Shown here: positions 1 through 25,496 of the stretch, piece by piece
Layout of the letters: each line of letters begins with the position of its first letter
Position numbering within the stretch: position 1 is the first letter of the stretch
Source of the DNA: a virus
Taxonomy: Duplodnaviria; Heunggongvirae; Uroviricota; Caudoviricetes
Strand: one strand, 5' to 3'
DNA length: 25,496 nt
IMG/VR virus record: IMGVR_UViG_2724679539_000001
Span: 1 to 25,496 of that record
Notes under the pieces: generated by a model
The model's input: the letters and a program-made list of their open reading frames with translations, nothing else
The model's database searches: none
What the model was told of the DNA's origin: nothing
Position numbers and translations under genes: made by a program

Positions 1-458
1 TTTCTAACCTGTACGGTATGGTCACCGGGATGGCGGAAGATCTGCAGAGTCTGGTCGGTGGAACGGTGGTCCGGCGTAAGGTTTACGCCCGTTTTCTGGA
101 TGCGGTGAACTTCGTCAACGGAAACAGTGGCGCCGATCCGGAGCAGGAGGTGATCAGCCGCTGGCGCATTGAGCAGTGCAGCGAACTGAGCGCGGTGAGT
201 GCCTCTTTTGTACTGTCCACGCCGACGGAAACGGACGGTGCTGTTTTTCCGGGACGTATCATGCTGGCCAACACCTGCACCTGGACCTATCGCGGTGATG
301 AGTGCGGTTATCACGGTCCGGCAGTCGCGGATGAATATGACCAGCCAACGTCCGATATCACGAAGGATAAATGCAGCAAATGCCTGAGCGGTTGTAAGTT
401 CCGCAATAACGTCGGCAACTTTGGCGGCTTCCTTTCCATTAACAAACTTTCGCAGTAA
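1..458 (+). CDS. L: Tail tip protein L (lambda gpL-like), 5'-truncated by the window edge; reading frame begins at position 3
   Basis: Translation SNLYGMVTGMAEDLQSLVGG... to ...FLSINKLSQ matches the C-terminal ~150 aa of lambda L as recalled, including the Cys-rich region (CGYHG, CSKCLSGC). Gene order L-K-I-J follows. Confidence 0.88.
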   Translation, partial: SNLYGMVTGMAEDLQSLVGGTVVRRKVYARFLDAVNFVNGNSGADPEQEVISRWRIEQCSELSAVSASFVLSTPTETDGAVFPGRIMLANTCTWTYRGDECGYHGPAVADEYDQPTSDITKDKCSKCLSGCKFRNNVGNFGGFLSINKLSQ

Positions 459-463
459 ATCCC

Positions 464-1207
464 ATGACACAGACAGAATCAGCGATTCTGGCGCACGCCC
501 GGCGATGTGCGCCAGCGGAGTCGTGCGGCTTCGTGGTAAGCACGCCGGAGGGGGAAAGATATTTTCCCGGCGTGAATATTTCCGGTGAGCCGGAGGATTA
601 TTTCCGGATGGCTCCGGAGGACTGGCTGCAGGCAGAAATGCAGGGTGAGATTGTGGCGCTGGTCCACAGCCACCCCGGTGGTCTGCCCTGGCAGAGTGAG
701 GCTGACCGGCGGCTGCAGGTGCAGAGTGATTTGCCGTGGTGGCTGGTCTGCCGGGGGGCGATTCATAAGTTCCGCTGTGTGCCGCATCTCACCGGGCGGC
801 GCTTTGAGCACGGGGTGACGGACTGTTACACGCTGTTCCGGGATGCTTATCATCTGGCGGGGATTGAGATGCCGGATTTTCATCGCGGGGATGACTGGTG
901 GCGTCACGGTCAGAATCTCTATCTGGATAATCTGGAGGCCACAGGGCTGTATCAGGTGCCGTTGTCAGCGGCGCAGCCGGGCGATGTGCTGCTGTGCTGT
1001 TTTGGTTCATCGGTGCCGAATCATGCCGCCATTTACTGTGGTGACGGTGAGCTGCTGCACCATATTCCTGAACAACTGAGCAAACGAGAGAGGTACACCG
1101 ACAAATGGCAGCGACGCACACACTCCCTCTGGCGTCACCGGGCATGGCGCGCATCTGCCTTTACGGGGATTTACAACGATTTGGTCGCCGCATCGACCTT
1201 CGTGTGA
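464..1207 (+). CDS. K: Tail tip assembly protein K (lambda gpK-like; MPN/JAMM plus NlpC/P60 domains)
   Basis: 247-aa ORF with JAMM motif HSHPGGLPWQSEAD and an NlpC/P60-like Cys/His region (DCYTLFRDAYHLAG ... HAAIY). Overlaps I by 103 bp as in lambda. Classic lambda annotation starts at the internal ATG at 608 (199 aa). Confidence 0.88.
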   Translation: MTQTESAILAHARRCAPAESCGFVVSTPEGERYFPGVNISGEPEDYFRMAPEDWLQAEMQGEIVALVHSHPGGLPWQSEADRRLQVQSDLPWWLVCRGAIHKFRCVPHLTGRRFEHGVTDCYTLFRDAYHLAGIEMPDFHRGDDWWRHGQNLYLDNLEATGLYQVPLSAAQPGDVLLCCFGSSVPNHAAIYCGDGELLHHIPEQLSKRERYTDKWQRRTHSLWRHRAWRASAFTGIYNDLVAASTFV

Positions 1208-1776
1208 AAACGGGGGCTGAAGCCATCCGGGCACTGGCCACACAGCTCCCGGCGTTTCGTCAGAAACTGAGCGACGGCTGGTATCAGGTACGGATTGCCG
1301 GGCGGGACGTCAGCACGTCCGGGTTAACGGCGCAGTTACATGAGACTCTGCCTGATGGCGCTGTGATTCATATTGTTCCCAGAGTCGCCGGGGCCAAGTC
1401 AGGTGGCGTATTCCAGATTGTCCTGGGGGCTGCCGCCATTGCCGGATCATTCTTTACCGCCGGAGCCACCCTTGCAGCATGGGGGGCAGCCATTGGGGCC
1501 GGTGGTATGACCGGCATCCTGTTTTCTCTCGGTGCCAGTATGGTCCTCGGTGGTGTGGCGCAGATGCTGGCACCGAAAGCCAGAACTCCCCGTACACAGA
1601 CAACGGATAACGGTAAGCAGAACACCTATTTCTCCTCACTGGATAACATGGTTGCCCAGGGCAATGTTCTGCCTGTTCTGTACGGGGAAATGCGCGTGGG
1701 GTCACGCGTGGTTTCTCAGGAGATCAGCACGGCAGACGAAGGGGACGGTGGTCAGGTTGTGGTGATTGGTCGCTGA
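1105..1776 (+). CDS. I: Tail tip assembly protein I (lambda gpI-like)
   Basis: 223-aa ORF beginning MAATHTLPLASPGMARICLYGDLQRF, with a Gly/Ala-rich hydrophobic C-terminal half. Position between K and J and the 60-bp gap to J match my recollection of lambda. Confidence 0.88.
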   Translation: MAATHTLPLASPGMARICLYGDLQRFGRRIDLRVKTGAEAIRALATQLPAFRQKLSDGWYQVRIAGRDVSTSGLTAQLHETLPDGAVIHIVPRVAGAKSGGVFQIVLGAAAIAGSFFTAGATLAAWGAAIGAGGMTGILFSLGASMVLGGVAQMLAPKARTPRTQTTDNGKQNTYFSSLDNMVAQGNVLPVLYGEMRVGSRVVSQEISTADEGDGGQVVVIGR

Positions 1777-1794
1777 TGCAAAATGTTTTATGTG

Positions 1795-1816
1795 AAACCG
1801 CCTGCGGGCGGTTTTG
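1795..1816 (+). terminator. Stem-loop between I and J (AAACCGCC-tgcg-GGCGGTTT, then TGTCATTT)
   Basis: 8-bp inverted repeat with 4-nt loop and a T-rich tail in the I-J gap; could be an attenuator or RNA structure. Mirror copy at 23681-23702 on the minus strand. Confidence 0.35.
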
Positions 1817-1836
1817 TCATTTATGGAGCGTGAGGA

Positions 1837-4800
1837 ATGAGTAAAGGAAGCAGTAAGGGGCATACCCCGCGCGAAGCGAAGGACAACCTGAAGTCCACGC
1901 AGTTGCTGAGTGTGATCGATGCCATCAGCGAAGGGCCGGTTGAAGGTCCGGTGGATGGATTAAAAAGCGTGCTGCTGAACAGTACGCCGGTGCTGGACAC
2001 TGAGGGGAATACCAACATCTCCGGTGTCACGGTGGTGTTCCGTGCCGGTGAGCAGGAGCAGACACCGCCGGAGGGGTTTGAATCCTCCGGCTCCGAGACG
2101 GTGTTGGGTACGGAAGTGAAATACGACACGCCGATCACCCGCGCCATCACGTCGGCAAACATCGACCGACTGCGCTTTACCTTCGGTGTGCAGGCACTGG
2201 TGGAAACCACCTCAAAGGGGGACCGGAATCCGTCGGAAGTTCGCCTGCTGGTTCAGATACAGCGTAATGGTGGCTGGGTGACGGAAAAAGATATCACCAT
2301 TAAGGGCAAAACCACCTCGCAGTATCTGGCCTCGGTGGTGGTGGATAACCTGCCGCCGCGCCCGTTTAATATCCGGATGCGCAGAATGACGCCGGACAGC
2401 ACCACAGACCAGCTGCAGAACAAAACGCTCTGGTCGTCATACACCGAAATCATCGATGTGAAACAGTGCTACCCGAACACGGCACTGGTCGGCGTGCAGG
2501 TGGATTCGGAGCAGTTCGGCAGCCAGCAGGTGAGCCGTAATTATCATCTTCGCGGGCGCATTCTGCAGGTGCCGTCGAATTATAACCCGCAGACGCGGCA
2601 ATACAGCGGTATCTGGGACGGAACGTTTAAGCCAGCATACAGCAACAACATGGCCTGGTGTCTGTGGGATATGCTGACCCATCCGCGCTACGGCATGGGG
2701 AAACGTCTTGGTGCGGCGGATGTGGACAAATGGGCGCTGTATGTCATCGGCCAGTACTGCGACCAGTCAGTGCCGGACGGCTTTGGCGGCACGGAGCCGC
2801 GCATCACCTGTAATGCGTACCTGACCACACAGCGCAAGGCGTGGGACGTTCTCAGTGATTTCTGCTCGGCGATGCGCTGTATGCCGGTATGGAACGGGCA
2901 GACGCTGACGTTCGTGCAGGACCGACCGTCGGATAAGGCGTGGACCTATAACCGCAGTAATGTGGTGATGCCGGATGATGGCGCGCCGTTCCGCTACAGC
3001 TTCAGCGCCCTGAAAGACCGCCATAATGCCGTTGAGGTGAACTGGATTGACCCGAACAACGGCTGGGAGACGGCGACAGAGCTTGTTGAAGATACGCAGG
3101 CCATTGCCCGTTACGGTCGTAATGTTACGAAGATGGATGCCTTTGGCTGTACCAGCCGGGGGCAGGCACACCGCGCCGGGCTGTGGCTGATTAAAACGGA
3201 GCTGCTGGAGACGCAGACCGTGGATTTCAGCGTCGGCGCAGAAGGGCTTCGCCATGTACCGGGCGATGTTATTGAAATCTGCGATGATGACTATGCCGGT
3301 ATCAGCACCGGTGGTCGTGTGCTGGCGGTGAACAGCCAGACCCGGACGCTGACGCTCGACCGTGAAATCACGCTGCCATCCTCCGGTACCACGCTGATAA
3401 GCCTGGTTGACGGAAGTGGCAATCCGGTCAGCGTGGAGGTTCAGTCCGTCAACGACGGCGTGAAGGTAAAAGTGAGCCGTGTTCCTGAGGGTGTTGCTGA
3501 ATACAGCGTATGGGGGCTGAAGCTGCCGACGCTGCGCCAGCGCCTGTTCCGCTGCGTGAGTATCCGTGAGAACGACGACGGCACGTATGCCATCACCGCC
3601 GTGCAGCATGTGCCGGAAAAAGAGGCCATCGTGGATAACGGGGCGCACTTTGACGGCGAACAGAGTGGCACGGTGAATGGTGTCACGCCGCCAGCGGTGC
3701 AGCACCTGACCGCAGAAGTCACTGCAGACAGCGGGGAATATCAGGTGCTGGCGCGATGGGACACACCGAAGGTGGTGAAGGGCGTGAGCTTCCTGCTCCG
3801 TCTGACCGTAACAGCGGACGACGGCAGTGAGCGGCTGGTCAGCACGGCCCGGACGACGGAAACCACATACCGCTTCACGCAACTGGCGCTGGGGAACTAC
3901 AGGCTGACAGTCCGGGCGGTAAATGCGTGGGGGCAGCAGGGCGATGCGGCGTCGGTATCGTTCCGGATTGCCGCACCGGCAGCACCGTCGAGGATTGAGC
4001 TGACGCCGGGCTATTTTCAGATAACCGCCACGCCGCATCTTGCCATTTATGACCCGACGGTACAGTTTGAGTTCTGGTTCTCGGAAAAGCGGATTACCGA
4101 TATCAGGCAGGTTGAAACCACAGCCCGCTATCTTGGCACGGCGCTGTACTGGATAGCCGCCAGTATCAATATCAAACCGGGCCATGATTATTATTTTTAC
4201 ATCCGCAGTGTGAACACCGTTGGCAAATCGGCATTTGTGGAGGCTGTTGGCCAGCCGAGTGATGATGCATCCGGCTATCTGGATTTTTTCAAAGGAGAGA
4301 TAGGGAAAAGCCATCTGGCTCAGGAGCTGTGGACGCAGATTGATAACGGTCAGCTTGCGCCTGACCTGGCTGAAATCAGGACGTCCATTACGGATGTCAG
4401 CAATGAAATCACGCAGACCGTCAATAAGAAACTGGAAGACCAGAGTGCGGCAATTCAGCAGATACAGAAGGTTCAGGTTGATACAAATAATAACCTGAAC
4501 AGCATGTGGGCTGTGAAGCTGCAGCAGATGCAGGACGGACGCCTTTATATCGCGGGTATTGGTGCCGGTATTGAGAATACCCCTGACGGTATGCAGAGTC
4601 AGGTGCTGCTGGCGGCGGACAGGATTGCGATGATTAATCCTGCGAATGGCAACACAAAGCCGATGTTTGTTGGTCAGGGCGATCAGATATTTATGAATGA
4701 AGTGTTCCTGAAATATCTGACGGCTCCCACCATTACCAGCGGCGGTAATCCTCCGGCATTTTCCCTGACACCGGACGGGCGGCTGACGGCAAAAAATGCC

Positions 4801-5316
4801 GATATCAGCGGTAACGTGAATGCGAACTCCGGGACGCTCAACAACGTCACGATTAACGAGAACTGCCGGGTTCTGGGAAAACTGTCCGCGAACCAGATTG
4901 AAGGCGATCTCGTTAAAACAGTGGGCAAAGCTTTCCCCCGTGACTCCCGTGCACCGGAACGGTGGCCATCAGGGACCATTACCGTCAGGGTTTATGACGA
5001 TCAGCCGTTTGACCGGCAGATTGTTATTCCAGCGGTGGCTTTCAGCGGTGCCAGACATGAACGGGAGAATAGCGATACTTATTCGTCATGCCGCCTGATA
5101 GTGAAGAAAAACGGGGCTGAAATTTATAACCGAACGGCTCTGGATAATACTCTGATTTACACGGGTGTTATTGATATGCCTGCAGGCAGTGGCGTAATGA
5201 CACTGGAGTTTTCGGTATCAGCATGGTGGGTAAATGGCTGGTATCCCACAGCAAGTATCAGCGATTTGCTGGTTGTGGTGATGAAGAAAGCCACCGCAGG
5301 CATCAGTATCAGCTGA
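1837..5316 (+). CDS. J: Tail tip attachment / host specificity protein J (lambda gpJ-like)
   Basis: 1159-aa ORF starting [34 protein letters not shown], near-identical to the lambda J N-terminus as recalled. Preceded by GAGG RBS. Fibronectin-like central repeats and a C-terminal receptor-binding region. Confidence 0.95.
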
Positions 5317-5335
5317 ATTTTATAACCCCAATACG

Positions 5336-5359
5336 GGCGTCAGAAATGACGCCTTTTTT
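5336..5359 (+). terminator. Rho-independent terminator downstream of J
   Basis: GGCGTCA-gaaa-TGACGCC followed by TTTTTT. Mirror copy at 20138-20161 on the minus strand. Confidence 0.65.
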
Positions 5360-5383
5360 ATTGCAGAAAAGCGAGAGGTAATT

Positions 5384-5983
5384 ATGCGTAAATTATGTGC
5401 TGTTATTCTGTCCGCAGTAGTCTGGCTGGTTGCCGCTGGTACGCCAGCGAGCGCAGCAGAGCATCAGTCCACACTAAGCGCCGGGTATCTTCAGGCCCAT
5501 ACTGATATGCCAGGCAGTGATGACCTGAAGGGCATTAACGTGAAATACCGTTATGAATTTACGGACACGCTGGGGCTGGTGACGTCATTCAGTTATGCCA
5601 ATGCCAAAGATGAGCAAAAAACGCATTACAGCGATACCCGCTGGCATGAAGATTCCGTGCGTAACCGCTGGTTCAGCATGATGGCGGGGCCATCTGTACG
5701 CGTGAATGAATGGTTCAGTGCTTATGCGATGGCAGGTGTGGCTTACAGCCGTGTTTCGACGTTCTCCGGGGATTATCTCCGCGTAACTGACAACAAGGGG
5801 AAAACGCACGATGTGCTGACCGGAAGTGATGACGATCGCCACAGCAACACGTCTCTGGCGTGGGGAGCTGGCGTGCAGTTTAACCCGACCGAATCCGTGG
5901 CCATTGATATTGCTTATGAAGGCTCCGGCAGTGGCGACTGGCGCACTGACGGTTTCATCGTGGGTGTCGGTTATAAGTTCTGA
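5384..5983 (+). CDS. lom: Lom-like outer membrane protein (Ail/Lom/PagC beta-barrel family)
   Basis: 199-aa ORF with signal peptide MRKLCAVILSAVVWLVAAGTPASA and a C-terminal aromatic residue (…VGYKF) typical of OMP barrels. Closely resembles lambda Lom; sits directly after J as in lambda. Confidence 0.9.
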   Translation: MRKLCAVILSAVVWLVAAGTPASAAEHQSTLSAGYLQAHTDMPGSDDLKGINVKYRYEFTDTLGLVTSFSYANAKDEQKTHYSDTRWHEDSVRNRWFSMMAGPSVRVNEWFSAYAMAGVAYSRVSTFSGDYLRVTDNKGKTHDVLTGSDDDRHSNTSLAWGAGVQFNPTESVAIDIAYEGSGSGDWRTDGFIVGVGYKF

Positions 5984-6009
5984 TTAGCCAGGTAACACAG
6001 TGTTATGAC

Positions 6010-6036
6010 AGCCCGCCGGTTCAGGCGGGCTTTTTT
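6010..6036 (+). terminator. Rho-independent terminator downstream of lom
   Basis: AGCCCGCC-ggttca-GGCGGGCT followed by TTTTTT. Mirror copy at 19461-19487 on the minus strand. Confidence 0.7.
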
Positions 6037-6047
6037 GTGGAGTGGAT

Positions 6048-8429
6048 ATGGCAGCAGTAAAAATCTCAGGTGTGCTGAAAGATGGTGCGGGAAAACCAAT
6101 ACAGAACTGCACTATTCAACTGAAGGCAAAGCGTAACAGCACCACGGTACTGGTGAACACGGTGGCCTCTGAAAATCCGGATGAAGCCGGGCGTTACAGC
6201 ATGGATGTTGAGTATGGTCAGTACAGCGTCACCCTGCTGGTTGAAGGTTTTCCGCCTTCACATGCCGGGACCATTACCGTCTATGAAGGTTCCAGACCAG
6301 GTACGCTGAATGATTTTCTCGGTGCCATGACGGAAGATGATGTCATGCCGGAGGCATTGCGTCGTTTTGAGGAAATGGTGGAAGAAGCGGCACGCAACGC
6401 TGAAGCCGCCTCTCAGAGCGCAGCGGCGGCAAAGAAATCCGAAACTGCAGCGGCATCATCGAAGAACGCGGCGAAAACCTCAGAAACGAATGCAGCTAAC
6501 AGCGCACAGGCGGCAGCGGCCTCGCAGACTGCATCGGCAAACTCCGCAACAGCAGCTAAAAAATCAGAAACCAACGCGAAAAATAGCGAGACAGCCGCAA
6601 AGACGAGCGAAACCAACGCAAAGTCCAGCCAGACGGCAGCGAAGACCAGCGAAACGAATGCCAAAGCCAGTGAAACTGCGGCAAAAAACAGCCAGGTTGC
6701 AGCAGCCCAAAGCGAGAGCGCGGCAGCCGGTTCTGCGACTTCAGCAGCTGGATCAGCAACTGCTACGGCTAACAGCCAGAAAGCTGCGAAGACGAGTGAA
6801 ACTAACGCAAAGTCCAGCCAGACGGCAGCGAAGACCAGCGAAACGAATGCCAAAGCCAGTGAAACTGCGGCGAAAAGCAGTCAGGATGCAGCGGCTCAAA
6901 GCGAGAGTGCCGCAGCCAGTTCTGCAAGCGCGGCGGCTGCTTCTGCCACTGCATCAGCCAACAGTCAAAAAGCAGCAAAAACCAGTGAAACCAATGCAAA
7001 GGCGAGCGAGACTGCGGCGGCTAACTCGGCGAAAGCATCCGCAGCAAGCCAGACGGCTGCAAAAGCAAGTGAAGACGCAGCCAGAGAGTATGCAAGCCAG
7101 GCTGCGGAGCCGTATAAACAAGTTTTGCAGCCGCTTCCCGATGTGTGGATACCATTTAACGATTCGCTGGATATGATTACGGGCTTTTCGCCGTCATATA
7201 AAAAGATTGTTATTGGTGATGATGAAATAACGATGCCTGGCGATAAGGTTGTAAAGTTTAAACGCGCATCAAAAGCAACTTACATTAATAAATCTGGTGT
7301 GCTGACAGAGGCTGCCATTGACGAGCCACGGTTTGAACGTGATGGCCTGCTTATTGAGGGGCAAAGAACTAATCTTCTGCTTAATTCAACAAATCCATCT
7401 AAATGGAATAAGTCAGGCAATCTGGAACTCACAGAAATATCCACGGATTCATTTAATTTTACTTATGGGAGATTTACTGTAAAAGATACTCTTATTGATC
7501 AGACAAGTGCGATTAATATCGCAACGGTTTCTGGCAGTAAAGGATTTGATGTCACAGGTGATGAAAAATATGTGACCATTTCATGCCGTGTCAGAAGTGA
7601 TGTTGAAAATATAAGGTGTCGTTTAAGATTTGAACATCATGATGGTTCTACTTACACTTTTTTGGGAGATGCTTACCTCAATTTATCAACACTTGTAATT
7701 GATAAGACTGGTGGTGCAGCAAATCGTATTATTGCAAAAGCTGTAAAAGATGAGGCTACTGGTTGGATTTTCTATCAGGCTACAATTAATGCACTAGATA
7801 CAGAGAGCATGATTGGTGCGATGGTTCAATATGCTCCAGTAAAAGGTTCAGGCACAGCATCTGGAGACTATCTGGATATCGCAACTCCACAAGTGGAAGG
7901 TGGATCAAGTGCTTCGTCATTTATTGTAACTGATATAACTGCAAGCACTCGCGCAAGCGATATGGTGACAGTCCCAATCAAGAATAACCTTTATAATCTT
8001 CCTTTTACGGTTCTTTGTGAGGTACATAAGAACTGGTATAAAACGCCAAATGCAGCACCGCGTGTTTTTGATACCGGCGGTCATCAAACCGGAGCGGCTA
8101 TTATTCTTGGCTTCGGTCGTTCAACAGATTACGACGGATTTCCTTATTGTGATATAGGTTTGGCTAACAGACGGGTAAACGAAAACGCATCGCTTGAAAA
8201 AATGGTTATGGGGATGCGTGTAAAGTCAGATCAGTCTACGTGCTCAGTAAGTAACGGGCGTATATCCAGCGAAACAAAAACCACATGGTCTTATATTCAG
8301 AACACCGCAATTATCCGTATTGGAGGCCAGACTACAGCCGGGTTACGTCATTTGTTTGGACACATCAGGAATTTCAGAATATGGCATAAAGAATTAACTG
8401 ATGCGCAAATGGGGGAGAGTATTAAATGA
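6048..8429 (+). CDS. stf: Side tail fibre protein with Stf-like N-terminal domain, Ala/Ser/Thr-rich repeat shaft and divergent AT-rich C-terminal domain
   Basis: N-terminus MAAVKISGVLKDGAGKPIQNCTIQLKAKRNSTTVLVNTVASENPDEAGRYSMDVEYGQYSV matches lambda Stf as recalled. The ORF track starts at GTG 6042; ATG at 6048 with GGAG 5 nt upstream is the more likely start. Confidence 0.85.
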   Translation: MAAVKISGVLKDGAGKPIQNCTIQLKAKRNSTTVLVNTVASENPDEAGRYSMDVEYGQYSVTLLVEGFPPSHAGTITVYEGSRPGTLNDFLGAMTEDDVMPEALRRFEEMVEEAARNAEAASQSAAAAKKSETAAASSKNAAKTSETNAANSAQAAAASQTASANSATAAKKSETNAKNSETAAKTSETNAKSSQTAAKTSETNAKASETAAKNSQVAAAQSESAAAGSATSAAGSATATANSQKAAKTSETNAKSSQTAAKTSETNAKASETAAKSSQDAAAQSESAAASSASAAAASATASANSQKAAKTSETNAKASETAAANSAKASAASQTAAKASEDAAREYASQAAEPYKQVLQPLPDVWIPFNDSLDMITGFSPSYKKIVIGDDEITMPGDKVVKFKRASKATYINKSGVLTEAAIDEPRFERDGLLIEGQRTNLLLNSTNPSKWNKSGNLELTEISTDSFNFTYGRFTVKDTLIDQTSAINIATVSGSKGFDVTGDEKYVTISCRVRSDVENIRCRLRFEHHDGSTYTFLGDAYLNLSTLVIDKTGGAANRIIAKAVKDEATGWIFYQATINALDTESMIGAMVQYAPVKGSGTASGDYLDIATPQVEGGSSASSFIVTDITASTRASDMVTVPIKNNLYNLPFTVLCEVHKNWYKTPNAAPRVFDTGGHQTGAAIILGFGRSTDYDGFPYCDIGLANRRVNENASLEKMVMGMRVKSDQSTCSVSNGRISSETKTTWSYIQNTAIIRIGGQTTAGLRHLFGHIRNFRIWHKELTDAQMGESIK
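6596..6929 (+). repeat. Internal tandem direct repeat inside stf (period 189 bp = 63 aa; two near-identical units with a 63-bp perfect core)
   Basis: 6621-6683 is identical to 6810-6872 (aagtccagccagacggcagcgaagaccagcgaaacgaatgccaaagccagtgaaactgcggc); flanks are ~85% identical. Encodes repeating KTSETNAK(A/S)S(E/Q)TAAK motifs. Confidence 0.85.
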
Positions 8430-8707
8430 AAGATTTAACACTCAAATTTGCAGACAGGGCCGACTTTTCGGCCTTTATGGAGAGTGCTGGCTATTATGAT
8501 GACGAGTCGATGCAGGATGATATTCTTATTGACGTGATAGGTAACGTGTACAAAGAAACCGGAGAACTTACTGAAGATGGCGAGCCGGTATGTGTTAAGG
8601 AAGACGGATATTTTGTAAACGTGCGCATCATTAATGATGTGAAAACACCGTCAATATTCGATGAATACGTGGTTGCTGTTGAGCATCAACTTCGTGGCTG
8701 GATGTGA
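8426..8707 (+). CDS. Hypothetical protein (93 aa), acidic, translationally coupled to stf (ATGA overlap)
   Basis: ORF with ATG overlapping the stf stop; AT-rich codon usage like its neighbours; no recognisable motif. Confidence 0.55.
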   Translation: MKDLTLKFADRADFSAFMESAGYYDDESMQDDILIDVIGNVYKETGELTEDGEPVCVKEDGYFVNVRIINDVKTPSIFDEYVVAVEHQLRGWM

Positions 8708-8716
8708 GGAAGAATA

Positions 8717-9757
8717 ATGGCTACATCGACAGTAATTCCTGATGACATCAAAACGCTAAAATCCGATGTTAGCAAATTAAAAAACGATCAAGGAAGCTAC
8801 GTAACAAAATCATATGTAGACAGCAAAAATGAAACCGTTAATGACTGGTCTGCTGCATGGTATCAGCAGGTACTGCCAACTAGCGGAGCTATATTTGGGC
8901 GAAAACTTCGCTCAACTCACAGGACGGCAGGTGTTGAGGATGCGTATTGCGAACTATACCTTAAAAAATGGATAGACAGCCCAGGGAACGCAATGGCGCG
9001 CCTTAACCTGAACGATAACGGTGAAAATATTTGCTGGGATTTTACCAACCTTTACGGCGGAACAATGATCTTCCCTGGTACTTCAGGCTATCTGAAAATG
9101 GGGAACTGTCTCATGTCGTATAGTGTGCGGGGAAGTAACGCGCTTATTAAGTTTGATTACACCGACACATTACAGATCAAATATGCTAATCATGGGTCAA
9201 CCATGACATTAACCACACAGGGATCCGCTCACGCTGGCGTAACAACTAGACTATGGGGTAATTCTAGCCGTCCGGTTGTTTATGAAGTTGGCGTAGATGA
9301 GGCTCTGTATATGTTCTACGCACAGAAAACTACCAGCAATACCTACGAATTAACGGTTAACGGCGCGTGCAATGCAAGTGCATTTAATCAAGGCTCTGAC
9401 CGGGATCTGAAAGACAATATTCAGGTGATCGATAATGCAACCGACCGCATTCGTAAAATGAACGGCTATACATACACGCTTAAAGAAAACGGTATGCCTT
9501 ACGCTGGTGTTATTGCACAAGAAACCCTGGAAGCCATCCCCGAAGCCGTAGGGTCTATGATGAAATATCCAGACGGCGGGAGTGGATTAGATGGAGAAGA
9601 AGGTGAACGGTATTACACAGTAGATTATTCTGGTGTTACTGGCTTGCTTGTTCAGGTAGCCAGAGAGTCGGACGACAGAATAACAGCACTGGAAGAAGAA
9701 AACGCAGAATTAAGACAAAGATTATCTGCAATTGAGGCGGCGCTTGCGTCTAAATAA
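8717..9757 (+). CDS. Tail fibre/tailspike-like protein with C-terminal peptidase S74 intramolecular chaperone (autoproteolytic) domain
   Basis: 346-aa ORF with GAGGA RBS. C-terminal region SDRDLKDNIQVIDNATDRIRKMNGYTYTLKENG...AGVIAQE followed by a coiled-coil tail (ITALEEENAELRQRLSAIEAALASK) fits the S74 chaperone signature with a Ser-x4-Lys dyad. Confidence 0.7.
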   Translation: MATSTVIPDDIKTLKSDVSKLKNDQGSYVTKSYVDSKNETVNDWSAAWYQQVLPTSGAIFGRKLRSTHRTAGVEDAYCELYLKKWIDSPGNAMARLNLNDNGENICWDFTNLYGGTMIFPGTSGYLKMGNCLMSYSVRGSNALIKFDYTDTLQIKYANHGSTMTLTTQGSAHAGVTTRLWGNSSRPVVYEVGVDEALYMFYAQKTTSNTYELTVNGACNASAFNQGSDRDLKDNIQVIDNATDRIRKMNGYTYTLKENGMPYAGVIAQETLEAIPEAVGSMMKYPDGGSGLDGEEGERYYTVDYSGVTGLLVQVARESDDRITALEEENAELRQRLSAIEAALASK

Positions 9758-9763
9758 TATTAA

Positions 9764-9786
9764 GGGGCCGAGCGCCCCGTTTTATT
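9764..9786 (+). terminator. Candidate terminator hairpin downstream of the S74-domain gene
   Basis: GGGGC-cgagc-GCCCC followed by GTTTTATT. Mirror copy at 15711-15733 on the minus strand. Confidence 0.45.
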
Positions 9787-9793
9787 GGGTAGG

Positions 9794-10087
9794 ATGAAAA
9801 TGGATATAACACCTTTCCTTCATGCACTTTGTGCTGTGGCTGCGCAGCTACTGATTGGTCTTTTTACCGGGAACTGGGCTTACGGTGCGATAGCCGGTTG
9901 TACGTTCTTCATCGCTCGTGAACATACCCAGGCAGAATATCGCTGGATTGAAATGTTCGGGCATGGCAAGCGTATGAATATGCCGTGGTGGGGCGGTTTT
10001 GATCCTCGCGCGTGGGATGTAGCAAGCCTGATGGATTTTGCTGTGCCGGTGGTGGCGTGTTTACTTGTATTTATATTTTTTGAATAA
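9794..10087 (+). CDS. Hypothetical small membrane protein (two predicted transmembrane segments)
   Basis: The ORF track begins at TTG 9785; ATG at 9794 or 9800 (GGTAGGA 5 nt upstream of 9800) is more plausible. Hydrophobic segments FLHALCAVAAQLLIGLF and VPVVACLLVFIFF. Confidence 0.55.
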   Translation: MKMDITPFLHALCAVAAQLLIGLFTGNWAYGAIAGCTFFIAREHTQAEYRWIEMFGHGKRMNMPWWGGFDPRAWDVASLMDFAVPVVACLLVFIFFE

Positions 10088-10092
10088 AATTA

Positions 10093-10119
10093 AGACCCCA
10101 TCTATAACTGATGGGGTCT
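10093..10119. terminator. Bidirectional terminator-like hairpin between the convergent membrane-protein gene and sopB
   Basis: Perfect 10-bp inverted repeat AGACCCCATC-tataact-GATGGGGTCT with A/T-rich flanks on both sides. Mirror copy at 15378-15404. Confidence 0.5.
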
Positions 10120-10135
10120 ATTCTATTTTCTGCTA

Positions 10136-11125
10136 TTAGTTATTTTTTACATCGGAAGAATTTCCAAACGCCTCCTCAAGAATAGATTCAATTTTACTCA
10201 TTAGGTGCGATGGTATTTTTCTGTTATCTAATTTTAATGTTGTGAAATTTTTCCCATATTTCGCCACAACACCGTCTCCATATTTCTTTTCCCTTTTCTC
10301 TCCATGTGAATTGTTTTTCTCAACAATAATGAAATCATGAAGAGCCTGTATTATTCTTTGCGCATCTAAACTTTCACCTGATTTTTTCATCCTCAGCAAC
10401 TGAGATGCAGCATTTTTCATGGCTGCTTCCTGTCCCTGATATGCTTTAAAAAGAGCGTCTCCTGCTCTGGCTGATAACTCACCAGGATGGTTAAATATTG
10501 CCAATATATCTTTAGGTAAACCGGCTGTATTAATACATCGGCTGATAATATTTCTATCCACGCCTTCGGCTTCAGCTAAAGATTTTACGTTACCGTCAAA
10601 TTCATGGAGCCTTCGCAGGTATCTTTTCCCCCTTTCATAGGCGCTGATAGGTCTATAGTCGTTGCCTATCTGCGATAACCATTGCATTTGTTCATCATCT
10701 AAATCGCCAATAAGAACACGATAATCGCATCCAGTTATAATGGCTGCTTTACGTCTTCGAGAACCATCAGCTACTTCAACAATACCTGACACTTTTCTTG
10801 CGAAAGCCGGATTTTGTTGCCCAGAAGTTAGAAAAGATGGAATTAAATCAGCTAGAGAAGATTCATTTAATAAATCTTGATCACGCTCATTACCTAGCCA
10901 TACCATTGTTGCCATTTCTACTTTATCTGCGGGGATCGTCTCTAACTTAAAGTTAACATTACGTCCGCATACTGGCAAAGTTATGCTATTACCGGTTAAT
11001 GAACTCAGTTGACGTTTTAAATCACCAACCATAGGTGATACCGGCTGATGTTCAGGTGCATGATGATTATTACTCATAATGCGATTAATATCCGGAGCAT
11101 TTTTTAGAAGAGAGCGTTGTTTCAT
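10136..11125 (-). CDS. sopB: Partition protein SopB (ParB family, type Ia)
   Basis: 329-aa ORF. N-terminal two-thirds resemble F-plasmid SopB (ITLPVCGR, WxGNERDQ, GQQ.PAF, DGSRRRKAA, NDYRP.SAYERG, FSHPGELSA-like motifs); the C-terminus is divergent. ATG overlaps the sopA stop. Confidence 0.9.
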   Translation of the reverse strand: MKQRSLLKNAPDINRIMSNNHHAPEHQPVSPMVGDLKRQLSSLTGNSITLPVCGRNVNFKLETIPADKVEMATMVWLGNERDQDLLNESSLADLIPSFLTSGQQNPAFARKVSGIVEVADGSRRRKAAIITGCDYRVLIGDLDDEQMQWLSQIGNDYRPISAYERGKRYLRRLHEFDGNVKSLAEAEGVDRNIISRCINTAGLPKDILAIFNHPGELSARAGDALFKAYQGQEAAMKNAASQLLRMKKSGESLDAQRIIQALHDFIIVEKNNSHGEKREKKYGDGVVAKYGKNFTTLKLDNRKIPSHLMSKIESILEEAFGNSSDVKNN

Positions 11126-12291
11126 TCTTCGTTCTCCCAGCGAGGTTTTATTAGATCATCAAAAATTTCTCGACAAACAGGGTCCCATATAGAGACGGCA
11201 TTTCTCCATGCATTAAGTGTTGAACGCTGGTTTGCCGCTTGTTCAAATACTGTTCGCATTTTTATCTGACCTTTACCTACTTCATCGGTAACGCGTACAA
11301 CCTGACGTAATACCATTGATCCCCATGTATTTCTTATTTGCTCTTCCATCCATCGTGATTGATTTCCTGTAGTGAGACTATATTTAGTCAGAAGCAAGCG
11401 AACGGTCGGCTCAAATCCGCCTAGGTCAACGCTTTCTAGGAGATCGAGAAGCATTGTGAAAAACTGTAGAACAGAGGCGTAATCAAATAATTCTGCAGGG
11501 GTAGCAACAACGATAACGTCAGCTGCGCAAACAACGTTAATGGTTCCTGTACCGAGGTTTGGAGCACTATCTATAACGATAACATCGTAGTTATCCCAAA
11601 CTGATTCTATAGCTGCGCGTAGCATCAGGTGAGGAGGGTGAGGCAATTTACCCTGAGCATGATATTGCATGAGATCTGTTTCTATACGGTGTAAAGCTAG
11701 GCAGCTAGGAATAATGTCCAGTCCAGGCCAGCATGTTGGTTTTATAGCATATTCAGCGTTATCGCGTTCGCCCAAGTAAAATGGCAGTAAAGTATCCTCG
11801 GCATGTATATGTAAATCAGGTACATAACCGTGATACATGGAGGCTGTTCCCTGAGGATCGTTACCTTCAACTAAAAGAACACGATGACCTTGTAATGCTA
11901 GCCATTGTGCCTGATGTACTGCAGACGATGTTTTATAAACTCCGCCTTTGTGTGACATAACAGCAAGCACAACTGGGTTTTTATCTTGTGGCCGTTGGTT
12001 TGGGTTGCCAAAAACAGCTCGCATACTATTGATTTGATCTATGGTATAACCGGCACGACGTTCAACTCTTCCTCTCATTTCAAAGTCAGGTGCAGGTAAA
12101 CGCCCGTTCTTCTCAGCATCTCTTATTGCTTGAGGAGTTACACCAATTAAATCTGCTACTTCAGTTATCCCCCATCTACGCGTGATACGCCGAGCTTCAG
12201 GACTATCATCACCGAATTGAGCTATAGCAATTGCTTGGGTCATTTCTTGACCGCGCGTAACACAATCTTGTAATAACTTTTTCAAAGACAT
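11122..12291 (-). CDS. sopA: Partition ATPase SopA (ParA family, type Ia with N-terminal HTH extension)
   Basis: 389-aa ORF with deviant Walker A KGGVYKTS and a long N-terminal extension. High similarity to F/N15 SopA as recalled (LLVEGNDPQGTASMYHG, IDSAPNLG, KGQIRMRTVFEQA-like blocks). GGAG RBS. Confidence 0.95.
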   Translation of the reverse strand: MSLKKLLQDCVTRGQEMTQAIAIAQFGDDSPEARRITRRWGITEVADLIGVTPQAIRDAEKNGRLPAPDFEMRGRVERRAGYTIDQINSMRAVFGNPNQRPQDKNPVVLAVMSHKGGVYKTSSAVHQAQWLALQGHRVLLVEGNDPQGTASMYHGYVPDLHIHAEDTLLPFYLGERDNAEYAIKPTCWPGLDIIPSCLALHRIETDLMQYHAQGKLPHPPHLMLRAAIESVWDNYDVIVIDSAPNLGTGTINVVCAADVIVVATPAELFDYASVLQFFTMLLDLLESVDLGGFEPTVRLLLTKYSLTTGNQSRWMEEQIRNTWGSMVLRQVVRVTDEVGKGQIKMRTVFEQAANQRSTLNAWRNAVSIWDPVCREIFDDLIKPRWENEE

Positions 12292-12312
12292 ACTGTCATC
12301 TCCAGCTTATAA

Positions 12313-12390
12313 CTTTGCTTAATAATTATTGCTTTGCATATTTCTAGCAAATTGACATAGAAAAAGCAAAGTAAAACAAAAAAGGCAAAG
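12313..12390 (-). promoter_or_regulatory. Putative sopAB promoter/operator region with four CTTTGC/GCAAAG hexamers
   Basis: Hexamers at 12313-12318, 12332-12337, 12366-12371 and 12385-12390, immediately upstream of sopA. F SopA is known to autoregulate via CTTTGC repeats overlapping its promoter. Exact -35/-10 not resolved. Confidence 0.45.
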
Positions 12391-12570
12391 ACGAAGATTT
12401 GAACAAAATCATCTTTTGTTTTATCCCTTAAATGCAAAAAAAAACAACGGCAAGATCATAACAAATTGATAATAAAGGATTTTTTAAAAGAAAGGAAATC
12501 GTATAAAACTAGTGAAACATGATGAAAATCATCAATGAGATACGTTTCCTCTATTTATTCTCCTAATCCT

Positions 12571-12720
12571 CACCAACAAAAGAACACAATCAAAGATCGT
12601 AAAACAACAATAATAATTCACACAAAATAAAGAACACAAATACAGAAAACAACAACACAATAAAAACAAGAGAACACAAGCTATAAATATTACACCAATA
12701 GAGAACACTAATCAAGAACA
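12571..12720. repeat. Array of AGAACACA(A) direct repeats flanking the telomere palindrome (left arm)
   Basis: AGAACACAAT at 12581-12590, AGAACACAAA at 12631-12640, AACAACACAA at 12651-12660, AGAACACAAG at 12671-12680, GAGAACACTA at 12701-12710, and GAACA at 12716-12720 abutting the palindrome. Confidence 0.6.
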
Positions 12721-12776
12721 TATCAGCACATAATTTCCCATTATACGCGCGTATAATGGGAAATTATGTGCTGATA
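12721..12776. other. 56-bp perfect palindrome at the symmetry axis; putative protelomerase target / hairpin telomere (telRL/telO-like)
   Basis: Sequence TATCAGCACATAATTTCCCATTATACGCGCGTATAATGGGAAATTATGTGCTGATA. The central 22 bp match the N15 telO core as I recall it; the flanking arms differ from N15 at a few positions. Sits immediately beyond sopA, as telL does in N15. Confidence 0.75.
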
Positions 12777-12926
12777 TGTTCTTGATTAGTGTTCTCTATT
12801 GGTGTAATATTTATAGCTTGTGTTCTCTTGTTTTTATTGTGTTGTTGTTTTCTGTATTTGTGTTCTTTATTTTGTGTGAATTATTATTGTTGTTTTACGA
12901 TCTTTGATTGTGTTCTTTTGTTGGTG
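12777..12926. repeat. Mirror copy of the AGAACACA repeat array (right arm, opposite orientation)
   Basis: Reverse complement of 12571-12720 (TGTGTTCT motifs). Confidence 0.6.
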
Positions 12927-13106
12927 AGGATTAGGAGAATAAATAGAGGAAACGTATCTCATTGATGATTTTCATCATGTTTCACTAGTTTTATACGATT
13001 TCCTTTCTTTTAAAAAATCCTTTATTATCAATTTGTTATGATCTTGCCGTTGTTTTTTTTTGCATTTAAGGGATAAAACAAAAGATGATTTTGTTCAAAT
13101 CTTCGT

Positions 13107-13184
13107 CTTTGCCTTTTTTGTTTTACTTTGCTTTTTCTATGTCAATTTGCTAGAAATATGCAAAGCAATAATTATTAAGCAAAG
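13107..13184 (+). promoter_or_regulatory. Putative sopAB promoter/operator region (mirror copy)
   Basis: Mirror of 12313-12390; CTTTGC/GCAAAG hexamers upstream of the second sopA copy. Confidence 0.45.
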
Positions 13185-13205
13185 TTATAAGCTGGAGATG
13201 ACAGT

Positions 13206-20180: not shown

Positions 20181-23100
20181 TCAGCTGATACTGATGCCTG
20201 CGGTGGCTTTCTTCATCACCACAACCAGCAAATCGCTGATACTTGCTGTGGGATACCAGCCATTTACCCACCATGCTGATACCGAAAACTCCAGTGTCAT
20301 TACGCCACTGCCTGCAGGCATATCAATAACACCCGTGTAAATCAGAGTATTATCCAGAGCCGTTCGGTTATAAATTTCAGCCCCGTTTTTCTTCACTATC
20401 AGGCGGCATGACGAATAAGTATCGCTATTCTCCCGTTCATGTCTGGCACCGCTGAAAGCCACCGCTGGAATAACAATCTGCCGGTCAAACGGCTGATCGT
20501 CATAAACCCTGACGGTAATGGTCCCTGATGGCCACCGTTCCGGTGCACGGGAGTCACGGGGGAAAGCTTTGCCCACTGTTTTAACGAGATCGCCTTCAAT
20601 CTGGTTCGCGGACAGTTTTCCCAGAACCCGGCAGTTCTCGTTAATCGTGACGTTGTTGAGCGTCCCGGAGTTCGCATTCACGTTACCGCTGATATCGGCA
20701 TTTTTTGCCGTCAGCCGCCCGTCCGGTGTCAGGGAAAATGCCGGAGGATTACCGCCGCTGGTAATGGTGGGAGCCGTCAGATATTTCAGGAACACTTCAT
20801 TCATAAATATCTGATCGCCCTGACCAACAAACATCGGCTTTGTGTTGCCATTCGCAGGATTAATCATCGCAATCCTGTCCGCCGCCAGCAGCACCTGACT
20901 CTGCATACCGTCAGGGGTATTCTCAATACCGGCACCAATACCCGCGATATAAAGGCGTCCGTCCTGCATCTGCTGCAGCTTCACAGCCCACATGCTGTTC
21001 AGGTTATTATTTGTATCAACCTGAACCTTCTGTATCTGCTGAATTGCCGCACTCTGGTCTTCCAGTTTCTTATTGACGGTCTGCGTGATTTCATTGCTGA
21101 CATCCGTAATGGACGTCCTGATTTCAGCCAGGTCAGGCGCAAGCTGACCGTTATCAATCTGCGTCCACAGCTCCTGAGCCAGATGGCTTTTCCCTATCTC
21201 TCCTTTGAAAAAATCCAGATAGCCGGATGCATCATCACTCGGCTGGCCAACAGCCTCCACAAATGCCGATTTGCCAACGGTGTTCACACTGCGGATGTAA
21301 AAATAATAATCATGGCCCGGTTTGATATTGATACTGGCGGCTATCCAGTACAGCGCCGTGCCAAGATAGCGGGCTGTGGTTTCAACCTGCCTGATATCGG
21401 TAATCCGCTTTTCCGAGAACCAGAACTCAAACTGTACCGTCGGGTCATAAATGGCAAGATGCGGCGTGGCGGTTATCTGAAAATAGCCCGGCGTCAGCTC
21501 AATCCTCGACGGTGCTGCCGGTGCGGCAATCCGGAACGATACCGACGCCGCATCGCCCTGCTGCCCCCACGCATTTACCGCCCGGACTGTCAGCCTGTAG
21601 TTCCCCAGCGCCAGTTGCGTGAAGCGGTATGTGGTTTCCGTCGTCCGGGCCGTGCTGACCAGCCGCTCACTGCCGTCGTCCGCTGTTACGGTCAGACGGA
21701 GCAGGAAGCTCACGCCCTTCACCACCTTCGGTGTGTCCCATCGCGCCAGCACCTGATATTCCCCGCTGTCTGCAGTGACTTCTGCGGTCAGGTGCTGCAC
21801 CGCTGGCGGCGTGACACCATTCACCGTGCCACTCTGTTCGCCGTCAAAGTGCGCCCCGTTATCCACGATGGCCTCTTTTTCCGGCACATGCTGCACGGCG
21901 GTGATGGCATACGTGCCGTCGTCGTTCTCACGGATACTCACGCAGCGGAACAGGCGCTGGCGCAGCGTCGGCAGCTTCAGCCCCCATACGCTGTATTCAG
22001 CAACACCCTCAGGAACACGGCTCACTTTTACCTTCACGCCGTCGTTGACGGACTGAACCTCCACGCTGACCGGATTGCCACTTCCGTCAACCAGGCTTAT
22101 CAGCGTGGTACCGGAGGATGGCAGCGTGATTTCACGGTCGAGCGTCAGCGTCCGGGTCTGGCTGTTCACCGCCAGCACACGACCACCGGTGCTGATACCG
22201 GCATAGTCATCATCGCAGATTTCAATAACATCGCCCGGTACATGGCGAAGCCCTTCTGCGCCGACGCTGAAATCCACGGTCTGCGTCTCCAGCAGCTCCG
22301 TTTTAATCAGCCACAGCCCGGCGCGGTGTGCCTGCCCCCGGCTGGTACAGCCAAAGGCATCCATCTTCGTAACATTACGACCGTAACGGGCAATGGCCTG
22401 CGTATCTTCAACAAGCTCTGTCGCCGTCTCCCAGCCGTTGTTCGGGTCAATCCAGTTCACCTCAACGGCATTATGGCGGTCTTTCAGGGCGCTGAAGCTG
22501 TAGCGGAACGGCGCGCCATCATCCGGCATCACCACATTACTGCGGTTATAGGTCCACGCCTTATCCGACGGTCGGTCCTGCACGAACGTCAGCGTCTGCC
22601 CGTTCCATACCGGCATACAGCGCATCGCCGAGCAGAAATCACTGAGAACGTCCCACGCCTTGCGCTGTGTGGTCAGGTACGCATTACAGGTGATGCGCGG
22701 CTCCGTGCCGCCAAAGCCGTCCGGCACTGACTGGTCGCAGTACTGGCCGATGACATACAGCGCCCATTTGTCCACATCCGCCGCACCAAGACGTTTCCCC
22801 ATGCCGTAGCGCGGATGGGTCAGCATATCCCACAGACACCAGGCCATGTTGTTGCTGTATGCTGGCTTAAACGTTCCGTCCCAGATACCGCTGTATTGCC
22901 GCGTCTGCGGGTTATAATTCGACGGCACCTGCAGAATGCGCCCGCGAAGATGATAATTACGGCTCACCTGCTGGCTGCCGAACTGCTCCGAATCCACCTG
23001 CACGCCGACCAGTGCCGTGTTCGGGTAGCACTGTTTCACATCGATGATTTCGGTGTATGACGACCAGAGCGTTTTGTTCTGCAGCTGGTCTGTGGTGCTG

Positions 23101-23660
23101 TCCGGCGTCATTCTGCGCATCCGGATATTAAACGGGCGCGGCGGCAGGTTATCCACCACCACCGAGGCCAGATACTGCGAGGTGGTTTTGCCCTTAATGG
23201 TGATATCTTTTTCCGTCACCCAGCCACCATTACGCTGTATCTGAACCAGCAGGCGAACTTCCGACGGATTCCGGTCCCCCTTTGAGGTGGTTTCCACCAG
23301 TGCCTGCACACCGAAGGTAAAGCGCAGTCGGTCGATGTTTGCCGACGTGATGGCGCGGGTGATCGGCGTGTCGTATTTCACTTCCGTACCCAACACCGTC
23401 TCGGAGCCGGAGGATTCAAACCCCTCCGGCGGTGTCTGCTCCTGCTCACCGGCACGGAACACCACCGTGACACCGGAGATGTTGGTATTCCCCTCAGTGT
23501 CCAGCACCGGCGTACTGTTCAGCAGCACGCTTTTTAATCCATCCACCGGACCTTCAACCGGCCCTTCGCTGATGGCATCGATCACACTCAGCAACTGCGT
23601 GGACTTCAGGTTGTCCTTCGCTTCGCGCGGGGTATGCCCCTTACTGCTTCCTTTACTCAT
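20181..23660 (-). CDS. J: Host specificity protein J (mirror copy)
   Basis: Protein identical to the 1837-5316 ORF. Confidence 0.95.
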
Positions 23661-25038: not shown

Positions 25039-25496
25039 TTACTGCGAAAGTTTGTTAATGGAAAGGAAGCCGCCAAAGTTGCCGACGTTATTGCGGAACT
25101 TACAACCGCTCAGGCATTTGCTGCATTTATCCTTCGTGATATCGGACGTTGGCTGGTCATATTCATCCGCGACTGCCGGACCGTGATAACCGCACTCATC
25201 ACCGCGATAGGTCCAGGTGCAGGTGTTGGCCAGCATGATACGTCCCGGAAAAACAGCACCGTCCGTTTCCGTCGGCGTGGACAGTACAAAAGAGGCACTC
25301 ACCGCGCTCAGTTCGCTGCACTGCTCAATGCGCCAGCGGCTGATCACCTCCTGCTCCGGATCGGCGCCACTGTTTCCGTTGACGAAGTTCACCGCATCCA
25401 GAAAACGGGCGTAAACCTTACGCCGGACCACCGTTCCACCGACCAGACTCTGCAGATCTTCCGCCATCCCGGTGACCATAATGTATAAGTGTGTAA
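25039..25496 (-). CDS. L: Tail tip protein L, 5'-truncated by the window edge (mirror copy); the last 17 nt diverge from the left-end copy
   Basis: 25039-25479 encodes a protein identical to 18-458. The codons in 25480-25494 would read THLYI instead of the lambda-like SNLYG. Confidence 0.8.
   Translation of the reverse strand, partial: THLYIMVTGMAEDLQSLVGGTVVRRKVYARFLDAVNFVNGNSGADPEQEVISRWRIEQCSELSAVSASFVLSTPTETDGAVFPGRIMLANTCTWTYRGDECGYHGPAVADEYDQPTSDITKDKCSKCLSGCKFRNNVGNFGGFLSINKLSQ

Follow-up and report, generated by a model that had tools for sequence, protein, structure and literature searches.

The J gene in the 25,496-nucleotide stretch of DNA analysed here (the window) is best explained, at a probability of roughly three in four, as a modular lambda-type tail-tip gene that joins a long shaft to a receptor-binding domain (RBD) of the 1A2 class, which is OmpC-type, and that sits on an N15-like replicon. 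The reading frame at 1837–5316 on the + strand (ATG start, 1159 codons, then a TGA stop) is a real lambda-type J, and an ordinary, already catalogued variant of it: NCBI holds the exact protein from Escherichia fergusonii; Pfam reports FNIII-A_GpJ, Phage-tail_3, Ig_J, Phage_Tail_Tip and Ig_GpJ_C on that identical protein, the last of these at the C-terminal Ig-like RBD; and the J proteins of PhiR55_1 (PV340571; 98% over all 1159 aa) and p19KM1803_4 are 97–98% identical to it as a whole. The gene position and domain order are those of lambda gpJ (P03749; PDB 8IYK, 8XCG-8XCK), with which the protein is collinear and shares 966 of its 1159 residues (83%) over the whole length. Lambda J (NC_001416) has 1132 aa, so the 27-residue excess given in the initial annotation is correct. 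The parts of the gene are as follows.

1837..5316, + strand: J, tail tip / central tail fibre protein, 1159 aa, copy 1 (ORF and translation)
1837..4251, + strand: J aa 1-805, lambda-like hub and FNIII domains (789/805 residues identical to lambda, gapless)
4252..4716, + strand: J aa 806-960, variable shaft module (alpha-helical shaft and upper beta-prism fibre), "long" allele
4342..4425, + strand: J aa 836-863, 28-residue insertion relative to lambda J, four heptads (alignment gaps)
4717..4866, + strand: J aa 961-1010, conserved shaft–RBD junction (92% identical to lambda)
4867..5316, + strand: J aa 1011-1159 and stop, Ig-like RBD of the 1A2 class, putatively OmpC-type (sequence identity, PDB matches)

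The N-terminal and central parts are lambda-like, as had been proposed, with 98% identity over aa 1-805. Identity drops from aa 806 (nt ~4252), which bears out the earlier impression that the distal third (~4300–5316) is unlike lambda; the divergence is not uniform, however: aa 806-960 are about 45% identical (about 34% over aa 806-900 and 63% over aa 901-960), the next 50 residues return to lambda-like sequence, and aa 1011-1159 fall to 41%. The domain order that we assign to the shaft module is taken from lambda gpJ, which runs from hub through FNIII-1/2, alpha-helical shaft and beta-prism fibre to an Ig-like RBD with loops L1-L4, residues 841-861 belonging to the shaft (PMC11101478). Phage 21 J matches aa 806-960 at 97–98% identity and shares the "long" shaft allele. 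The junction at aa 961-1010 is 88–100% identical across all eight lambda-type alleles compared, includes the equivalent of lambda aa 964, the fusion site of gpJ chimeras, and is likely a recombination joint; engineers retarget lambda particles at the same conserved shaft/RBD boundary.

The extra length, which the initial annotation had tied to the receptor-binding region, lies instead in the shaft: the 27 additional residues are the sum of 28 gained at aa 836-863, a gap whose exact position can shift by a few residues, and one lost in the RBD at a single 1-residue gap, which makes the RBD shorter than that of lambda by one residue. The length difference is thus located elsewhere than at the C-terminus, but the C-terminus is not lambda-identical either. 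Core-hydrophobic residues occupy 75% of the a/d heptad positions of the insertion and 5% of the others, a pattern equalled in 16 of 5000 shuffles; a single-sequence AlphaFold2 model of aa 780-1159, of low confidence (mean pLDDT 42) and used just as weak secondary-structure support, also renders the insertion helical. We infer that the 28 extra residues would add four heptads to a trimeric alpha-helical shaft.

In natural J proteins, shaft length and RBD class vary independently of each other. PhiR47_1 (PV340566) and 2G7b (LR595866) carry the RBD class of the window on the short lambda shaft, giving a J of 1131 aa; phage 21 (OL657228) joins the long shaft to an A8-like RBD in 1160 aa; and lambda h434 has the short shaft with the 434 RBD in 1137 aa. 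Because the same RBD occurs at 1131 aa and the long shaft with another RBD at 1160 aa, length is uninformative on specificity and a poor guide to receptor use; shaft and RBD are separate exchangeable modules.

The RBD itself has a homologous Ig-like fold of nearly equal length in lambda gpJ, to which its match extends to the last residue (phmmer against PDB, E about 1e-104; A8 gpJ, 9wca, E about 1e-126). Over aa 1011-1159 it is 41% identical to lambda, 39% to the 434 type, 58–62% to the A8/phage 21 type, and 93–98% to PhiR55_1, 2G7b and PhiR47_1 (98% for PhiR47_1). The phage 21/A8 RBD, whose A8 member (gpJ-A8, PDB 9wca/9wcb) is an OmpC user, is a sister class, separated by a 9-column indel difference as well. 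The class of the window is that of the RBD that follows the conserved junction in gpJ-1A2 (Brodel et al., Nature 2024, PMC11338833): in a frameshift-tolerant alignment to the published machine-read DNA, an error-prone text extracted from a PDF, 125 of the 141 readable codons of aa 1011-1159 and 61 of the 66 readable codons of aa 942-1010 are identical. Some of the 16 differing RBD codons are machine-reading errors, and the two RBDs differ at roughly 11–16 positions. Plain tblastn against the same text is misleading owing to its frameshifts, and native DNA words from the window found just A8 in the Nature 2024 supplement because the 1A2 tail is recoded. Whereas gpJ-1A2 is an engineered fusion to the short lambda shaft with a recoded 3' end, the window allele is natural and has the long shaft. 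It also belongs to a different sub-allele, "PAGSGV...WWVNG", shared with PhiR47_1; 1A2, PhiR55_1 and 2G7b have "PAGHGH...WLVN". About 56 phage records contain this RBD at >90% identity, the class is present in thousands of E. coli genomes, and its carriers include the J proteins of long-tailed Stx1a/Stx2a-converting phages. These phages, like PhiR55_1, PhiR47_1 and 2G7b, are integrating lambdoid phages, whereas the element of the window is a linear plasmid-prophage.

Lambda particles bearing gpJ-1A2 or gpJ-A8, both fused at lambda aa 964, recognise OmpC and not LamB, as established with lamB/ompC deletion strains complemented with OmpC alleles; 1A2 worked on the OmpC of EDL933 and not on that of MG1655 (K-12) (PMC11338833; bioRxiv 10.1101/2025.02.28.640725). 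Judging from about 89–93% identity to this tested RBD, the window RBD most likely uses OmpC in place of LamB and discriminates among OmpC alleles. The earlier suggestion of a different host specificity thus holds in so far as the C-terminal RBD is unlike that of lambda and falls in a class for which OmpC use has been demonstrated; its example of FhuA, as in N15/phi80-type phages, is not supported. By sequence class, "OmpC-type (1A2-like)" would be the appropriate annotation, in place of "lambda/LamB-like" or "N15/FhuA-like". In the literature on natural carriers (PhiR phages, 2G7b, vB_EcoS-640R1, ECOR13 lambdoids) we found neither adsorption data nor a receptor assignment, and for the receptor of phage 21 just an att-site mention. 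The subject of the sole paper found to name PhiR47.1 and PhiR55.1 is a nuclease defence system and ManYZ, and a 2026 preprint on receptor prediction deals with the GpJ of Drexlerviridae and not with lambda-type RBDs.

Three other receptor assignments deserve consideration. If the RBD used LamB as lambda does, 41% identity would represent drift within a LamB-binding domain, and the fold, the length and the retained framework motifs (FDRQIV, DMPAG, KK..GIS) fit that view; yet the stretches between these motifs are completely unlike those of lambda, and the ~89%-identical 1A2 RBD delivered DNA to lamB-deleted cells in a manner dependent on the OmpC allele supplied, so we regard LamB use as very improbable. 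An N15/phi80-type tip that uses FhuA, to which we give a negligible chance and which we reject, would agree with the N15-type sopAB and telomere site on the element, but the J proteins argue otherwise: similarity to N15 J (30% identity) is confined to aa 4-959, and similarity to phi80 J to aa 4-717 and 843-959; neither N15 gp21 nor phi80 J has any similarity to aa 961-1159 (E > 1). Moreover, the gene downstream of J is lom, as in lambda, where N15 has gp22/gp23/cor, and a tblastn search of the window arm with N15 gp22, gp23 and cor produced chance matches only (E > 0.5).

More serious, though still unlikely, is a porin binder whose specificity departs from that of 1A2, directed at other OmpC alleles (e.g. 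of E. fergusonii) or at a different porin such as OmpF or PhoE. The sub-allele substitutions concerned are R1073, NSDT 1078-1081, K1090, T1108, S1117, V1119, W1130 and G1133. Differences within the class are grouped in a small number of short segments; the OmpC-allele ranges of 1A2 and A8 are already unlike; and PhiR47_1, with an RBD 98% identical to that of the window, was propagated on ECOR13 instead of K-12. The sub-allele changes may lie in receptor-contact loops and could in that case alter the OmpC-allele range, or even the porin used, although 89–98% identity within a class usually preserves receptor identity. A combined version, in which the SGV/WWVNG sub-allele serves other OmpC alleles or another porin than HGH/WLVN and the shaft extension is an adaptive spacer, appears doubtful to us. 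Were the four-heptad spacer real, it could change how far the tail tip reaches, or how it is triggered, on hosts covered by thick O-antigen or capsule; were both parts true, an N15-type plasmid-prophage would have a host range not predicted by its replicon type.

Under our preferred reading, a modular J with an OmpC-type RBD, a functional lambda-type J would be put together from interchangeable modules: a lambda-like hub with FNIII domains (aa 1-805), a "long" shaft common to phage 21 (aa 806-960), a conserved junction acting as recombination joint (aa 961-1010), and an Ig-like RBD of the class of the engineered chimera gpJ-1A2 (aa 1011-1159). By analogy with lambda, the distal loops of the trimeric RBD would enter a porin trimer of the outer membrane, and porin binding would be signalled upward along the fibre and so cause the tail to open.

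The genes around J, in Pfam order L (partial), K, I, J, Lom and Stf-N, form a lambda-like tail module, and beyond it lie partition genes and a telomere site. The remaining features of the window are as follows.

5336..5359, + strand: terminator-like hairpin after J, GGCGTCA-GAAA-TGACGCC then T6 (read from sequence)
5384..5983, + strand: lom, Ail/Lom outer-membrane protein, 199 aa (Pfam Ail_Lom, E = 2e-127)
6042..8429, + strand: side tail fibre (Stf-like), 793-795 aa (Pfam phage_tail_N, E = 7e-67)
8717..9757, + strand: second tail-fibre-domain protein, 346 aa, with intramolecular chaperone domain (Pfam Peptidase_S74, E = 9e-14)
10136..12291, − strand: plasmid partition genes sopB (10136-11125) and sopA (11122-12291) (Pfam SoPB_HTH, AAA_31/CbiA)
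12721..12776, no strand: telomere site, telL joined to its own complement (palindrome centre 12748/12749)
20181..23660, − strand: J copy 2, mirror of copy 1 (palindrome of the window, fold-back)

A terminator is annotated in phage 21 at the position equivalent to the hairpin after J. Gene calling on the same contig puts the start of the Stf-like gene at 6048.

The window is its own reverse complement save 7 bases at each end, and the second J ORF is present because of this palindrome. At its centre, 50 of the 56 bases of 12721-12776 are identical to N15 telRL, centred on the annotated cut site of N15; here a relative runs on into the protelomerase gene, and the window folds back. The sopAB genes, annotated ParB/SopA in plasmids 99.6–99.7% identical, adjoin the telomere in the order of N15 genes 27/28, and sopBA likewise lies beside a telRL-type palindrome in N15 (NC_001901) and in N15-like phage-plasmids of Escherichia and Shigella. 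Relatives carry protelomerase and N15-type RepA; p19KM1803_4, whose sop-tel region is 99.6% identical, has both, and neither lies within the window, which is confined to the telL arm. We conclude that the element is an N15-like linear plasmid-prophage of Escherichia fergusonii, with a lambda-type tail tip on an N15-type replicon, and that the window is its hairpin telomere (telL) end, read around the hairpin. Published surveys describe N15-like elements with lambda-like structural genes that differ mainly in their tail genes; N15's own J lacks the RBD of the window.

A genuine inverted duplication of 12.7 kb in the genome, which would make the 25-kb palindrome and the doubling of J real, has one point in its favour: the head-to-head telL-telL junction is a genuine transient intermediate in the replication of N15-type plasmids. 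Protelomerase would resolve such a junction, however, and the palindrome centre coincides with the telomere-resolution site. Two other contigs with the identical J, of 47,008 and 45,442 bp, end 23 and 313 nt before that centre. We consider the duplication highly improbable and reject it in favour of a fold-back at a hairpin telomere. Two RefSeq plasmid records also stop at the match end, and these ends indicate a linear replicon bounded by the telomere site. Hairpin-ended N15-like plasmid-prophages yield fold-back contigs in which every gene is doubled, and these can pass for inverted duplications; RefSeq contains a further perfect fold-back of this end, deposited as a "circular 14-kb plasmid".

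The J open reading frame encodes 1159 residues and lambda J 1132 (NC_001416), which confirms the initial annotation that J is 27 residues longer than its lambda counterpart. BLASTP finds 966/1159 identities between the two proteins, and identities per segment, counted on a MAFFT alignment, are as follows.

J and its segments (residues numbered from the ATG), with identity to lambda J
1837-5316, plus strand: J, ORF with ATG start, 1159 codons
aa 1-805: 98%, gap-free
aa 806-835: 60%
aa 836-863: missing in lambda J (28 gap columns)
aa 864-960: 52%
aa 961-1010 (junction): 92%
aa 1011-1159 (receptor-binding domain, RBD): 41%, one 1-residue gap only

The N-terminal and central parts are lambda-like, as had been proposed, over the gap-free aa 1-805. 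The distal third, said to differ from ~4300, does diverge, from about nt 4252, but the conserved junction breaks up this divergence. The entire length excess lies in aa 836-863, and the C-terminal 149 residues fall one short of lambda's. The suggestion of a tip with different specificity is partly borne out: the RBD is divergent and a different receptor is likely, but the extra length has nothing to do with the tip. J also contains an antisense ORF of 515 aa (2767-4314, minus strand), which most likely arises by chance from the codon bias of so long and GC-rich a gene.

The insertion comes after lambda residue 835, and as the helical shaft includes lambda J residues 841-861 (PMC11101478), it lies in the shaft. 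Its 28 residues make exactly four heptads, with 75% core-hydrophobic residues at a/d positions vs. 5% at other positions, a contrast matched in 16 of 5000 shuffles; a low-confidence AlphaFold2 single-sequence model of aa 780-1159 (pLDDT 42) is helical at aa ~812-876 and all-beta at aa ~1045-1150. We infer that the insertion adds four heptads, or roughly 4 nm, to the trimeric helical shaft and keeps the register.

Comparison of eight natural J alleles and the PDB A8 fragment shows that the shaft (aa 806-960) and RBD modules assort independently.

Shaft and RBD modules in natural J alleles, relative to window J
PhiR55_1 and plasmid p19KM1803_4: long shaft; RBD as window (93-94%); 1159 aa
2G7b and PhiR47_1: short, lambda-like shaft; RBD as window (93-98%); 1131 aa
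Phage 21: long shaft (97-98%); different RBD (62%); 1160 aa
Lambda h434: short shaft; RBD of 434 type (39%); 1137 aa

As the same RBD occurs with a long or a short shaft, and the long shaft with another RBD, J length follows the shaft module and is uninformative on the RBD. The junction, common to every compared allele at 88-100% identity, is the probable natural crossover point.

By tblastn with the last 151 residues of J, the window RBD occurs at >90% identity in ~56 phage records, including long-tailed Stx1a/Stx2a-converting phages, PPompW, JLK-2012, PhiR47_1 and 2G7b; a sister class at ~58-63% comprises phage 21, mEp460 and “Lambda_ev” phages, and identity is 42% to lambda and ~40% to the 434 type. 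PDB “A8 gpJ 713” (9wca/9wcb) falls in the sister class. One group assayed lambda particles carrying gpJ-A8 or gpJ-1A2 (chimeric lambda J proteins fused at lambda aa 964) in lamB/ompC deletion strains complemented with OmpC alleles: both recognised OmpC in place of LamB; gpJ-A8 was active on MG1655 and EDL933 OmpC, gpJ-1A2 efficient on the EDL933 allele only; and together they covered 21 of 23 OmpC variants (PMC11338833; 10.1101/2025.02.28.640725). The 1A2 DNA printed in the supplement is recoded and carries machine-reading errors, so we used a frameshift-tolerant protein-to-DNA alignment; against this error-bearing text, 125 of 141 readable codons are identical for aa 1011-1159 and 61 of 66 for aa 942-1010, which places the window RBD in the 1A2 class. 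OmpC is therefore the best-supported candidate receptor, judged by ~89-93% identity to 1A2. The class holds two sub-alleles, window and PhiR47_1 (…PAGSGV…WWVNG…) vs. 1A2, PhiR55_1 and 2G7b (…PAGHGH…WLVN…), and these differences could shift the OmpC-allele range.

The FhuA-type tip of N15 and phi80, also raised in the initial annotation, is not supported. Alignment is confined to aa 4-959 (30% identity) for N15 J (1061 aa) and to aa 4-717 and 843-959 for phi80 J (1192 aa), and aa 961-1159 of window J show no similarity to either (E > 1). Homologues of gp22, gp23 and cor, the genes 3′ of J in N15 and phi80, were sought in the window and none was found; lom comes after J, as in lambda.

Window J is an already catalogued, known mosaic allele whose RBD is of the OmpC class. 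NCBI lists the identical 1159-aa protein under Escherichia fergusonii, apparently the element's host, as [quoted passage not shown]; the 90% cluster to which it belongs counts 34,633 members. The RBD DNA occurs at at least 90% identity in ~2,300 complete-genome E. coli records (at least 99% in 26; 99.8% in 14 top-listed records); the best identity for the whole J gene is 99.4%.

The window, which is the complete contig JZWQ02000009.1 of GCA_000968905.2, equals its own reverse complement save 7 bases per end (mismatches at 3-16 and 25481-25494; centre 12748/12749), and every gene is therefore present twice, in mirror image.

20181-23660, minus strand: J copy 2, mirror image of copy 1
12721-12776, palindrome centre: telomere-resolution site, 50/56 bases as in N15 telRL
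10136-12291, minus strand, and 13206-15361, plus strand: sopB/sopA (plasmid partition), nearest genes to the centre

The site, with core CCCATTATACGCGCGTATAATGGG, is centred on the annotated N15 cut site; its six differences from telRL fall at symmetric positions and make it perfectly palindromic, which telRL of N15 itself is not; this is expected of a telL-telL fold-back. Past the centre, a relative runs on into the protelomerase gene; the window folds back. The contig is most simply explained as one end of an N15-like linear plasmid-prophage, its covalently closed telL hairpin, around which reading or assembly continued. The same sequence would be expected from a telL-telL replication junction, though such a junction should be transient. 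Two further assemblies have an identical J; their contigs, 47,008 and 45,442 bp long, end 23 and 313 nt before the centre, respectively. In RefSeq, the “circular” plasmid pEC21Z151-14K (NZ_CP101203.1, 14,498 bp) has an identical centre and, over positions 1-14498, forms a palindrome of the same lom-stf-sopBA-telL arm without a single mismatch; almost certainly, this record is an artefact of assembling the hairpin end of NZ_CP101200, a 46-kb plasmid in the same strain.

The top matches to the element are E. coli plasmids of ~46 kb, among which p19KM1803_4 encodes a protelomerase and an N15-type RepA along with lambda-like head and tail genes, a J of 1159 aa, lom, stf and sopBA. The element is an N15-like phage-plasmid with a lambda-type, not N15-type, tail tip; published surveys of such phage-plasmids in Escherichia and Shigella describe lambda-like structural genes, with tail genes the main difference. 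In the window, sopB/sopA directly adjoin lambda-type tail-fibre genes: 3′ of lom, 6042-10087 encodes a 795-aa Stf-like fibre (phage_tail_N), a 93-aa ORF, a 346-aa protein with a tail-fibre domain and a Peptidase_S74 intramolecular chaperone domain, and a 95-100-aa ORF. Within stf lies a direct repeat of ~249 bp (83% identity, 6582-6830 and 6771-7019), and L010, another compared sequence, diverges from the window in this region (7388-7946 unaligned, then 97.9% identity). Gene I has two start candidates, ATG 1105 (1105-1776, 223 aa, overlapping K) vs. 1204 (1204-1776, 190 aa), and is 210 aa in another gene call; lambda K and I overlap as well.
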